Source of the DNA: Dehalococcoidia bacterium
GTDB lineage: Bacteria; Chloroflexota; Dehalococcoidia; Bin125
Direction: 5' to 3'
Assembly (NCBI GenBank): GCA_965211635.1
Contig: OZ242948.1
Location: forward strand, 99,730-163,729
DNA length: 64,000 nt
Positions 21,965 through 23,650 of this stretch are shown here, piece after piece (within the stretch, counting starts at the first letter, position 1; each line of letters starts with the position of its first letter). Position numbers and translations under genes: made by a program. The notes under the pieces were generated by a model. The model was not told the DNA's origin. It searched no databases and saw only the letters and a program-made list of their open reading frames with translations.

Positions 21965-23650
21965 ATGGCTTCAAAATCCTTGCAGGAGATTCTCGATGCA
22001 ACGGAGCACTCCGGCCTGATCGGAGTGAACGACGTCCGTGTCTCGTCAGTCGCCCAGGACTCGCGATCCGTCACGCCCGGCGCAGCCTTCGTCGCCCTCC
22101 CCGGCTTCACCGTCGACGGCCACCAGTACCTCGACGCGGCAATCGCGAACGGAGCGGCCGCGCTCATCGTCCAATCCGACCGGCAGGCCTACTGGCAACC
22201 AATCGCCGACGCAAACCCGGGCACTCCCATCGTCAGCGTTGACGACACTCGCTCGGCGCTGCCGGCTATCGCCGCCGCCTTCCACGACTACCCCGCAAGA
22301 AAGCTGACAGTCGCCGGAGTTACCGGCACCGACGGCAAGTCCACCACCACCTACCTGATCCACGCCATGCTCTCCGCCGCCGGACACCCGACCGGCCTGC
22401 TCAACGGCGTCGAGTTCCACATCGGCGGGGAGTGGACCCGCAACGAGACCGGCGAGACCACGCCCGAAGCGGACATCATCCAGGCCAAACTTGCCGAGAT
22501 GGTCGCCGCCGGCGACACCCACGCCGTTCTCGAAGTCAGTTCCCATGCCCTCGAGCTCCACCGCGCCGACGAGATCAACACTCAAACAGCCGTCTTCACC
22601 GGACTCTCCGACGATCACCTCGACTTCCACCAAACCAGGGAAAACTACCTCGCCGCCAAACTCAAGCTGTTTCGTAGCCTCGACAACCACCAGATTCCCC
22701 TCTCCCCCCGCGAAGCGGCGCGGCCGTCACTTTCCCTCTCCCTCGGCGAAGCGGCGCGGCCGTCATTTTCCCTCTCCCTCGGCAAAGCGGCGCGGCCGTC
22801 ATTTTCCCTCTCCCCCCGCGAAGCGGGGGGAGATGCCGAAGGCAGAGGGGGGCTCCCCGGCACGCCGGTCGCCGTCGTCCGAGCCGAAGACTCGCTGCGT
22901 GACACCATCGCCTCCGCCCACGCTCAACAGACGGTGATCGCTACCGCAACCCCAAACACCGCCGCCGACGTCAGCGTCCTCGCCGCTTCCCAGGATGCCC
23001 GAGGCTCCGACGTCCGCGTCGTCACTCCCGCCGGAGCACTCGGCGCGCGACTGCCGATGCCGGGCGATTACAACCTCGGCAACGCCGCCCTCGCGGCCGG
23101 CGCTGCATGGTCGCTCGGCGTTGGTCCTGTCGCAATGCAGACAGCTCTGAACAACCTCCGACCGGTCCCCGGCCGGATGGAGTCGATCGACGAAGGCCAG
23201 CCGTTCACCGTCATCGTTGACGCTGCCGCCACCGGTCCGGCGCTCGACCTCGCTCTGCAGACGCTGAAACCACACGTCAAAGGACGTCTGATCCTCGTCT
23301 TCGGCGTTGCCGGCGAGCGCGATCCGATTCGCAAGTCGAGCATGGCCGCAGCCGCCGCGCAGTTCGCCGACCACGCAGTGATCACCAACGAGAATCCGCG
23401 CTCCGAGGACCCGACCGAGATAGTAGAGGAGATTGCCGCCCACTTCGCAGAGGCCGACGGCGCGTCACTCGACAAACAGCCCGAGCGCCGCGAGGCGATC
23501 CGCCGTGCAATCTCGCTCGCTCAGCCCGACGACCTCGTCTTGATCGCCGGCAAGGGCGCGGAACCGACGCTGATCTACGCCGACCGCGTCGAACCCTGGG
23601 ACGATCGTGAGGTTGCGAGGACGCTCGTCGCCGAGTTGCTATCGCGCTAG
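21965..23650 (+). CDS. murE: UDP-N-acetylmuramoyl-tripeptide--2,6-diaminopimelate ligase MurE (carries an in-frame repeat insertion)
   Basis: …GVTGTDGKSTTTYL… P-loop, …GRMES…, …ENPRSEDP…. Start MASKSLQEIL at 21965. The ORF's upstream extension from 21764 is translated repeat and was rejected. Confidence 0.85.
   Translation: MASKSLQEILDATEHSGLIGVNDVRVSSVAQDSRSVTPGAAFVALPGFTVDGHQYLDAAIANGAAALIVQSDRQAYWQPIADANPGTPIVSVDDTRSALPAIAAAFHDYPARKLTVAGVTGTDGKSTTTYLIHAMLSAAGHPTGLLNGVEFHIGGEWTRNETGETTPEADIIQAKLAEMVAAGDTHAVLEVSSHALELHRADEINTQTAVFTGLSDDHLDFHQTRENYLAAKLKLFRSLDNHQIPLSPREAARPSLSLSLGEAARPSFSLSLGKAARPSFSLSPREAGGDAEGRGGLPGTPVAVVRAEDSLRDTIASAHAQQTVIATATPNTAADVSVLAASQDARGSDVRVVTPAGALGARLPMPGDYNLGNAALAAGAAWSLGVGPVAMQTALNNLRPVPGRMESIDEGQPFTVIVDAAATGPALDLALQTLKPHVKGRLILVFGVAGERDPIRKSSMAAAAAQFADHAVITNENPRSEDPTEIVEEIAAHFAEADGASLDKQPERREAIRRAISLAQPDDLVLIAGKGAEPTLIYADRVEPWDDREVARTLVAELLSR
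22697..22856 (+). repeat. In-frame insertion in murE: 3 tandem 36-bp 5' modules plus core REP
   Basis: Three 36-nt units (ccctctccNcNgcgaagcggcgcggccgtcaYtttc) and then the canonical core. Translated as …PLSPREAARPSLSLSLGEAARPSFSLSLGKAARPSFSLSPREAGGDAEGRGGLPG…. Sits between MurE segments that are contiguous in homologs (…AAKLKLFRSLD / GTPVAVVRAED…). Confidence 0.85.

Follow-up and report, generated by a model that had tools for sequence, protein, structure and literature searches.

A murE gene enlarged in frame by an interspersed palindromic repeat was found in a 64,000-nucleotide stretch of a Dehalococcoidia bacterium (assembly GCA_965211635.1, contig OZ242948.1, positions 99,730 to 163,729 of the forward strand), which is called the window below and is numbered from its first letter. 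At the site of a short loop in the MurE protein, the gene carries three tandem 36-bp units followed by a complete 54-bp core element, and this insert is nucleotide-identical to copies lying between other genes. The same core occupies the same loop in many related genomes, and the reading frame is kept in each of them. We consider it likely that the insert is a selfish passenger, resembling repetitive extragenic palindromic (REP) elements, that is tolerated in a permissive MurE loop, with the array having arisen by slippage and the core having been kept uniform by self-correction or conversion.

The murE gene and the anatomy of its insert

The plus-strand open reading frame (ORF) from 21764 to 23650 was without interruption in a reading-frame check of the window, and by family cutoffs and three-domain fold its product is clearly MurE (UDP-MurNAc-tripeptide synthetase). 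It scored 434.6 bits against TIGR01085 (cutoff 257.3) and 390.6 bits against NF001126 (cutoff 373), and the Pfam domains Mur_ligase, Mur_ligase_M and Mur_ligase_C were all found. The best solved relative was MurE of Mycobacterium tuberculosis (E 1e-74), and a Foldseek search with the AlphaFold model returned the MurE structures 2wtz, 2xja and 8g6p at TMt 0.88-0.89. The P-loop GTDGKST, EVSSH, K232, NxxN, PGR, D419, R452, ENPR and GKGAE533 are kept, of which GTDGKST, EVSSH, K232, R452 and GKGAE533 are invariant across the clade. Three motifs are non-canonical, with ENPR for DNPR, DAAATGP for DYAHTP and GKGAE for GKGHE. The catalytic and diaminopimelate (DAP)-binding roles of these residues are taken to be those assigned to the E. 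coli enzyme (1E8C).

Ortholog N-termini align at the ATG at 21965, which is probably the true start of the gene. Both the longer ORF and the 622-aa protein deposited as P0001 reach upstream into the gene of the RNase P RNA (21440-21839), and because of this overlap the long annotated N-terminus is regarded as spurious. P0001 is the one identical entry in the protein database and lies on a 3.1-Mb contig; the other homologues are labelled Chloroflexota or Chloroflexi. Like P0001, several orthologs start upstream, so that in 21764-21964 the 3' part of the RNase P RNA and an intergenic repeat are translated (..PSLSLSPREAGGDAEGRGGLP..); it seems that the repeat, being free of stop codons, has led to start calls too far upstream. 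Essentiality of murE is assumed here. No other mur, dcw or cell-wall gene adjoins murE within the 64-kb window. Chloroflexi of the SAR202 group from sponges have been reported to be without peptidoglycan genes (PMC6306507), and the present clade may or may not belong to SAR202.

The features of the locus, all on the plus strand, are as follows.

21440-21839, plus strand: RNase P RNA gene directly upstream of murE (Rfam RF00010, 286 bits), given for context only
21965-23650, plus strand: murE coding sequence from the probable true start, 561 aa and stop (ORF, MurE families, ortholog N-termini)
22691-22870, plus strand: stretch without counterpart in empty-site orthologs (codon comparison, 33 orthologous loci)
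22697-22732, plus strand: 36-bp unit 1, of which the 5' 22 nt equal the 5' arm of the core and are followed by the tail CGCGGCCGTCACTT
22733-22768, plus strand: 36-bp unit 2 (direct reading, Tandem Repeats Finder)
22769-22804, plus strand: 36-bp unit 3, one base different from unit 2
22805-22858, plus strand: complete core element, 54 bp (exact copies elsewhere in the window; stem search)

An earlier note, made from the letters of the stretch, had proposed that a repeat array lies in frame inside a real murE gene, and this was borne out by the continuous ORF, the scored MurE identity and the match to intergenic copies. Its insert length of 160 nt has to be corrected, being two bases short and not a multiple of 3; the repeat-derived stretch 22697-22858 spans 54 codons, or 162 nt (3 x 36 + 54). 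Where empty-site orthologs have 4 codons, 60 stand in 22691-22870, which is a net gain of 56 codons or 168 nt. The note had also pointed to the lack of stop codons. This is correct but is weak evidence for the insertion, as an open frame is not remarkable in itself when the core is without a stop codon in all six frames. The peptides encoded by the insert include EAGGDAEGR and AARPSFSLSLGK.

At 22698-22826 Tandem Repeats Finder reported the array (period 36 bp, 3.6 copies, 92% matches) with a score of 216, which makes it by far the strongest tandem repeat in the window. Each unit shares its first 22 nt with the core and continues with a 14-nt tail; the 3' arm is lost. Unit 3 is probably the most recent duplication. 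The units were also considered as a structured element of their own, which was rejected, their folding being no better than that of shuffled sequences (z +0.3 and +1.1). The unit tails hold CCGTCAYTT right before the next C-rich arm (22720-22735, 22756-22771, 22792-22807 and, in an intergenic copy upstream, 21880-21890). This string resembles the CCGTCATT head of a CGTC-tagged REP family in related genomes, a likeness of sequence which hints that the present family, called A type below, and the CGTC-tagged family may be related or chimeric.

The core folds into two hairpins. Hairpin 1 (22809-22833) has a perfect 11-bp stem with the loop GAA, TCTCCCCCCGC-GAA-GCGGGGGGAGA, and hairpin 2 (22835-22843) reads GCC-GAA-GGC. 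The core then ends with AGAGGGGGGCTCCCC, which is able to pair with the 5' CCCTCT in a closing stem of 6 bp (CCCTCT/AGAGGG). The fold energy is about -34 kcal/mol (-33.8; z -2.1 to -2.5). Across 25 distinct copies 98.9% of the cells are paired. The stems of hairpin 1 hardly vary, and hairpin 2 shows compensatory exchanges (C-G/U-A and C-G/G-C/A-U) whose degree of covariation was reached in 0 of 500 shuffles. The loop of hairpin 1 varies freely and is often found as its reverse complement (GAA/TTC, GGA/TCC).

Among A1-type orthologs the core is 97% identical, as against 63% at third-codon positions of murE, and for the stems of hairpin 1 the figures are 99% and 61%. This conservation has sharp boundaries, and within them synonymous sites are as conserved as non-synonymous ones. 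The 36-nt units of loci L001, L007 and L008 and of the window are, judged by eye and without figures, visibly diverged from each other, and the 12 nt to the right of the murE core are diverged and proline-rich. No GTAG or CGTC tag was found beside hairpin 1 in 36 distinct A-type copies from the window and the loci, CCGTCA occurring only in the tail of the 36-bp unit. Of the Rfam matches, those above the gathering threshold were to the RNase P RNA and one tRNA only, and over the insert nothing but noise appeared up to E 10. An intrinsic terminator was rejected on direct reading, there being no U-tract behind the hairpins.

In the alignment to M. tuberculosis MurE, query residues 23-237 correspond to 59-267 and residues 303-554 to 277-528, so about 65 residues (238-302) replace the nine residues 268-276. 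The AlphaFold model, built with 92 homologues, has a mean predicted local distance difference test (pLDDT) score of 89.6. Residues 255-295 are below 50, and this low-scoring insert lies between a helix (225-241), which follows the conserved K232, and a strand (302-306). The earlier note had described the site as a short loop between the ATP-binding and C-terminal domains. Mapping onto the structure agreed with the short loop and moved its place: the break falls at position 118 of 200 in the Mur_ligase_M profile, and Mur_ligase_C begins only at residue 403. As the Pfam break is mid-profile and the modelled disorder lies in a confident MurE fold, the insert lies inside the central ATP-binding domain, where it is modelled as a disordered surface loop, and is not an inter-domain linker.

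Copies in the window and in other host genes

The 35-nt core string occurs five times exactly in the window, with 0 occurrences expected. With looser hairpin and stem searches, nine element loci were found in the 64 kb, all on the plus strand.

4572-4623, plus strand: core copy with loop GCAA, intergenic (hairpin and stem searches)
8848-8897, plus strand: core copy, intergenic, in the convergent gap by the 3' end of ftsK (string and hairpin searches)
9289-9340, plus strand: A2-variant copy within ftsK (9055-11736, minus strand), antisense and in frame (stem search)
14166-14219, plus strand: A2-type variant, intergenic between two minus-strand genes (stem search)
21335-21407, plus strand: three-hairpin variant, intergenic, between the RNase H gene and the RNase P RNA gene (hairpin search, folding)
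21856-21942, plus strand: composite copy of one 36-bp-like unit and a core, intergenic, between rnpB and the murE start (string search)
22697-22858, plus strand: unit array and core within murE (string and stem searches)
45806-45860, plus strand: core copy, intergenic, 33 nt past a stop codon (string search, folding)
47393-47446, plus strand: core copy, intergenic, 10 nt past the stop codon of a nickel superoxide dismutase (Ni-SOD) gene (string search)

The intergenic copies lie in unidirectional or convergent gaps, mostly tens of bases from a stop codon, and 0 were found in divergent gaps of the window. The copy in ftsK encodes DPPQSLRDSSPLSGGSEG and sits in the linker that joins the motor domain to the gamma domain. 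Its outer stem is compensated, reading CCCTCA...TGAGGG where the others have CCCTCT...AGAGGG. The architecture of the three-hairpin copy at 21335-21407 is shared by the murE insert of a related genome (L006). From position 1 to about 52 kb the window has a negative GC skew, which turns slightly positive beyond, with a cumulative minimum near 50-52 kb. This minimum could be a replication landmark, and 0 elements lie past it.

A scan of metagenome contigs for the pattern of hairpin 1 gave 23 loci, from which copies in host genes were picked by long coding-like ORFs on both sides and then by Pfam domains flanking the insert. In one locus (L083) the host is a polymerase of DnaE type, and the copy separates its finger domain from its HhH domain. 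Others are inside a class-III aminotransferase domain (L086, L097, L099), where one domain match spans the insert, and in phage terminase (L085, L087). In three double CoA-transferase family III proteins (L096, L098 and L082/L100), copies occur in the linker, in sense orientation and two frames in L096 and L098 and antisense in L082 and L100; these linker copies may mark the fusion of two adjacent genes. Since the copies within genes use several frames and both orientations, no particular peptide seems to be required.

The loop in related genomes and its history

A genome scan yielded 33 orthologous loci (L001-L033) from metagenome-assembled genomes named Dehalococcoidia or Chloroflexota. Many of the bin names (IRC, RHO, SB06xx) presumably belong to sponge-metagenome series. 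The loop of MurE was found in the following states.

L017-19, L021, L023, L026, L027, L029, L031: empty loop, xHPxG[RQ]
L022, L028, L030, L032: short unclassified loop
L002-5, L010, L012, L013: core alone, +20 aa
L006: core and third hairpin
L001, L007, L008: one diverged 36-nt unit and core, +32 aa
Window alone: three units and core
L009, L011, L014-16, L033: a different hairpin (B type), GTCATTCCCGCGCAAGCGGGAATC, encoding VIPAQAGIS
L020, L024, L025: possible decayed remnants

Across the 33 loci the reading frame is kept in every loop variant and each indel is a multiple of 3. The murE ORF is intact in 34 of 34 genomes, with about 110 invariant residues. Core insertions at the loop come from more than 15 independent assemblies, among them whole-chromosome records and a metagenome contig of the Joint Genome Institute (JGI). 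Orthologs do share a linker at this site, but one with clear nucleotide identity to the repeats, so the outcome that the earlier note had named as refuting it, a shared linker without such similarity, was not seen. The note's expectation that units of 36 bp can differ in number with no shift of frame was borne out, the orthologs carrying 0 or 1 units and the window 3. The notion that the insertion is specific to this genome did not hold for the core, which is common to many species-level relatives; it applies to the three-unit expansion alone. The three-unit array is known from one assembly, and P0001 is the sole member of its cluster.

In the A2 type, hairpin 2 is longer by 4 nt, which changes the peptide from AEGRGGLP to VAERQRGAP. 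As 4 nt are missing from the spacer ahead of AVVRAED, the total length is unchanged and therefore the frame is kept. In its lineages the B-type hairpin is a genome-wide repeat (52 matches, most of them intergenic, among the loci that were fetched), and the insert carries a CGTC head (CCGTCATTCCCGCG...) as in CGTC-tagged REPs. Tandem half-copies with a period of about 21 nt lie upstream of one complete B-type hairpin, which is the same half-element architecture as that of the 36-bp units. In the loops of L014, L033 and L015 (locus position about 10718-10813), tandem copies of head and 5' arm, translated as TPAPTT(V/T), precede the CGTC-type insert. An empty loop such as that of L017 (locus position about 10718-10738) reads CAT CCC GAA GGC CGG (HPEGR) and contains CCGAAGGC, which is like GCCGAAGGC of hairpin 2; this may be chance or a small palindromic target.

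Nine flanking genes in synteny (2186 columns) were used for a tree that was bootstrapped with a numpy distance routine. In this tree empty-site clades are nested in occupied ones with 100% support, A-type and B-type taxa are paired (L006 with L011 at 100%, L009 with L008/L010 at 96%), and the A-type locus L013 is nested among B-type taxa. In 300 bootstraps of the murE tree the occupied taxa did not once form a clade. One insertion with vertical descent thereafter was therefore rejected, as the occupied taxa are never monophyletic and the empty clades are nested. Precise excision as the origin of the empty sites was rejected as unlikely; they keep an outgroup-like xHPxG[RQ] loop, which argues that they are ancestral.

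Allele exchange was observed once, in the rnhA-murE-aminotransferase segment of L009 and L011. Here dS is about 0.25 for murE and AT3 (the aminotransferase) vs 0.85-1.2 for genes upstream, the RNase H proteins share 97.7% identity, and the murE tree and the flanking-gene tree conflict at 100% support. The gene is selected but relaxed: its ratio of non-synonymous to synonymous substitutions (dN/dS) is 0.13-0.29 (about 0.2), vs 0.01-0.15 for most flanking-gene comparisons, and MurE is 78-88% identical where neighbouring proteins mostly reach 93-99%. It is the fastest-evolving protein of the syntenic block, and between L013 and L014 the flanking proteins are 94-99.8% identical and MurE 84%.

Explanations and relation to known repeats

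In the explanation that we favour, a non-autonomous REP-like element of about 54 nt, with two GC-rich hairpins closed by CCCTCT...AGAGGG, would be scattered in the genome mostly 3' of genes. In an ancestor of the species group, one copy would have come to lie in a surface loop of MurE's central domain that tolerates insertions, and it would be translated as a disordered loop rich in Pro, Gly, Ser and Arg, as proposed from the sequence and the model. The sole filter would be that a gene under selection has to stay in frame, which would explain why every observed length variant is a multiple of 3, and a stop-free element would survive in frame more easily. The 36-bp units are most likely truncated copies that were amplified by replication slippage or unequal exchange at the direct repeat of 22 nt that unit and core have in common, and their period may persist because 36 bp equal 12 codons. 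The near-invariance of the core would likely be due to palindrome self-correction by template switching, which also flips the loop, together with conversion by genomic copies. Selection on MurE probably does not account for it.

Several points weigh against this explanation. The conservation of the core across species is unexpectedly strong, above that of a decaying passenger, and fits a selected DNA or RNA structure as well. All nine window copies are on one strand (two-sided binomial 0.004), which neutrality alone does not explain. No transposase or REP-associated tyrosine transposase (RAYT) was found among the 21 window ORFs scanned with Pfam. A target-site duplication or an insertion motif could not be defined, empty and filled murE sites being without a duplicated flank. 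Taxa with an empty, an A-type or a B-type loop are intermingled on the well-supported tree of flanking genes, so that recurrent colonisation of the loop and/or allele exchange is needed. Translation of the insert is predicted from the intact ORF.

A second explanation, which appears unlikely to us, is that the core is a selected cis-acting structure, either an RNA hairpin or a replication-linked DNA hairpin or protein site. The RNA hairpin would arise on the murE transcript solely when translation falls behind and would then terminate or destabilise the transcript, thus acting as a translation-coupled checkpoint. The MurE loop would then have been colonised repeatedly because the structure is useful there. 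The excess of core conservation over third-codon positions (97% vs 63%), its sharp edges next to truncated units that look diverged, the invariant stems and the covarying hairpin 2 would fit such a role. The same is true of the position of copies at gene 3' ends, like that of RNA-stability or terminator elements, of the two unrelated hairpin families in one loop in different lineages, and of the nine window copies on one strand within a region of uniform negative GC skew. However, several empty-site clades keep an intact murE. The copies in ftsK and L082 are antisense and that at 14166-14219 is antisense to both neighbours, and as copies occur in either orientation a role of the sense RNA is disfavoured; also, the hairpins are followed by no U-tract and match no Rfam family. 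Palindromes that correct themselves, and conversion by hundreds of copies, would moreover lead to high conservation as well. It is quite improbable that the inserted peptide itself is functional, as a flexible linker or interaction loop which modulates or docks MurE and is tuned in length by the number of units. Its retention in frame in many species, the use of the same elements as inter-domain linkers in double CoA-transferase proteins and the position of the loop a few residues past the conserved K232 helix would speak for it. But depending on the lineage the loop holds AEGRGGLP, the frame-shifted VAERQRGAP, VIPAQAGIS or nothing, synonymous sites of the core are conserved as much as non-synonymous ones, the region is predicted to be disordered, and in further host genes the element is read in different frames and from the opposite strand.

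Less probable still is an artefact or a dead gene, that is, a mis-assembled array or a murE pseudogene or relic in a lineage without peptidoglycan, where the insertion would be of no consequence. Such a view could draw on the three-unit array being seen in one assembly with P0001 alone in its cluster, on MurE evolving several-fold faster than its neighbours, and on the report on sponge SAR202 (PMC6306507). It is opposed by the same-site core insertions in more than 15 independent assemblies, by an ORF that is intact in 34 genomes at a dN/dS of about 0.2 with some 110 invariant residues including the catalytic and DAP-binding motifs, and by the close relatives, which show neither a dN/dS near 1 nor frameshifts, all indels being multiples of 3. 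That the direction was reversed, with a native low-complexity linker of MurE giving rise to the interspersed repeat, is hardly credible. It is contradicted by the distribution of empty sites, as the outgroup and several ingroup lineages have the short xHPxG[RQ] loop without the element; many genomes and metagenome contigs also have the element in abundance between their genes, and a second, unrelated REP family is found at the same site in other lineages.

Among described repeats, the Rickettsia palindromic elements (RPEs) are known as palindromic repeats lying in frame in housekeeping genes (Ogata et al. 2000, as summarised in PMC3184786 and PMC3733652). As far as these summaries go, both are interspersed palindromes that occur in frame in genes as a tolerated extra peptide and also between genes. 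The earlier note had drawn this parallel, and it is apt, given the in-frame copies in murE, ftsK, DnaE and others. The element behaves like RPEs in that it lies in frame in several unrelated intact genes, with empty-site orthologs for murE. It differs from them in its sequence, which is unrelated as far as apparent, and in its host, as Rickettsia does not belong to the Chloroflexota. It further has a two-hairpin core of about 54 nt, also occurs as an in-frame tandem array and is nearly invariant between species. RPE-1 is longer, with about 100-150 bp.

REPs with GTAG or CGTC tags are short GC-rich stem-loops, most of which are found 3' of genes where the gap is unidirectional or convergent (Di Nocera et al. 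2013; PMC3733652), and in the window the intergenic copies show the same distribution. In that study a minority of REPs was inside genes (dnaE, uvrA/B, recB) and encoded 20-30 aa, or 43-82 aa in clusters, and in two Xanthomonas species roughly one and the same site of recB held different REPs; no murE was found among the host genes that its supplementary text gives. The B-type murE insert with its CGTC head fits this superfamily, whereas the A-type core is without the tag and has a second, covarying hairpin and a closing stem. In the broad sense the A-type element is a REP, being a short GC-rich palindrome with many copies, mainly intergenic and near gene 3' ends. RPEs, BRE of Bordetella, the pneumococcal BOX, RUP and SPRITE repeats and MITEs (miniature inverted-repeat transposable elements) of Anabaena in or fused to genes have been reviewed (PMC3184786). 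With MITEs the present element shares that it is a small non-autonomous repeat in or fused to ORFs with stable hairpins, but it is much shorter, has just a 6-bp closing stem in place of long terminal inverted repeats and is without a recognisable target-site duplication. As in the variable number tandem repeats (VNTRs) of the mycobacterial interspersed repetitive unit (MIRU) type that occur in or between genes (PMC3184786), the tandem period keeps frames open and the copy number differs by lineage; however, the present array consists of a truncated half of a hairpin element and lies within an enzyme domain, not between operon genes. The element is therefore filed as REP-like, and RPE-like in behaviour, without family membership, as no GTAG/CGTC tag, no transposase among the 21 window ORFs scanned and no target duplication were found.

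Palindromic repeats within genes and in frame were thus already known; new here are the Chloroflexota lineage and the two-hairpin element family. The findings extend the phenomenon from Rickettsia and Proteobacteria to an uncultured lineage of Chloroflexota, with many relatives presumably from sponge metagenomes, and provide a rare comparative series in which one enzyme loop is empty, filled by either of two families or expanded by an array in frame. The recurrent occupation of one loop by two REP families, the strong conservation of the core and the strand bias deserve attention. For annotation it is relevant that such repeats inflate and mis-start gene calls and create low-complexity segments in housekeeping proteins. 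If the conservation of the core were selected, the elements would be candidate intragenic regulatory structures. There is a slim chance that the core is an actively maintained, strand-specific cis-element of DNA or RNA, that the MurE loop is a true hot spot, settled independently and more than once by two REP families, and that the elements supply new protein linkers and gene fusions (double CoA-transferases, FtsK, DnaE) to sponge-associated Chloroflexota. Intragenic REPs would then form a selected layer of gene regulation or protein innovation, beyond tolerated parasites.

Three further genes of the window were noted. A large serine recombinase (19199-20671; Resolvase, Recombinase and Zn-ribbon domains) lies between conserved syntenic genes upstream of rnhA-rnpB-murE and may be the remnant of a mobile element. 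The minus-strand gene at 28018-34596 encodes a protein of 2193 aa with seven SWM_repeat stretches and a weak match to Big_5 (Ig-like), and that at 47474-49321, also on the minus strand, encodes a homologue of GmrSD-type restriction endonucleases; both are unrelated to the insert.

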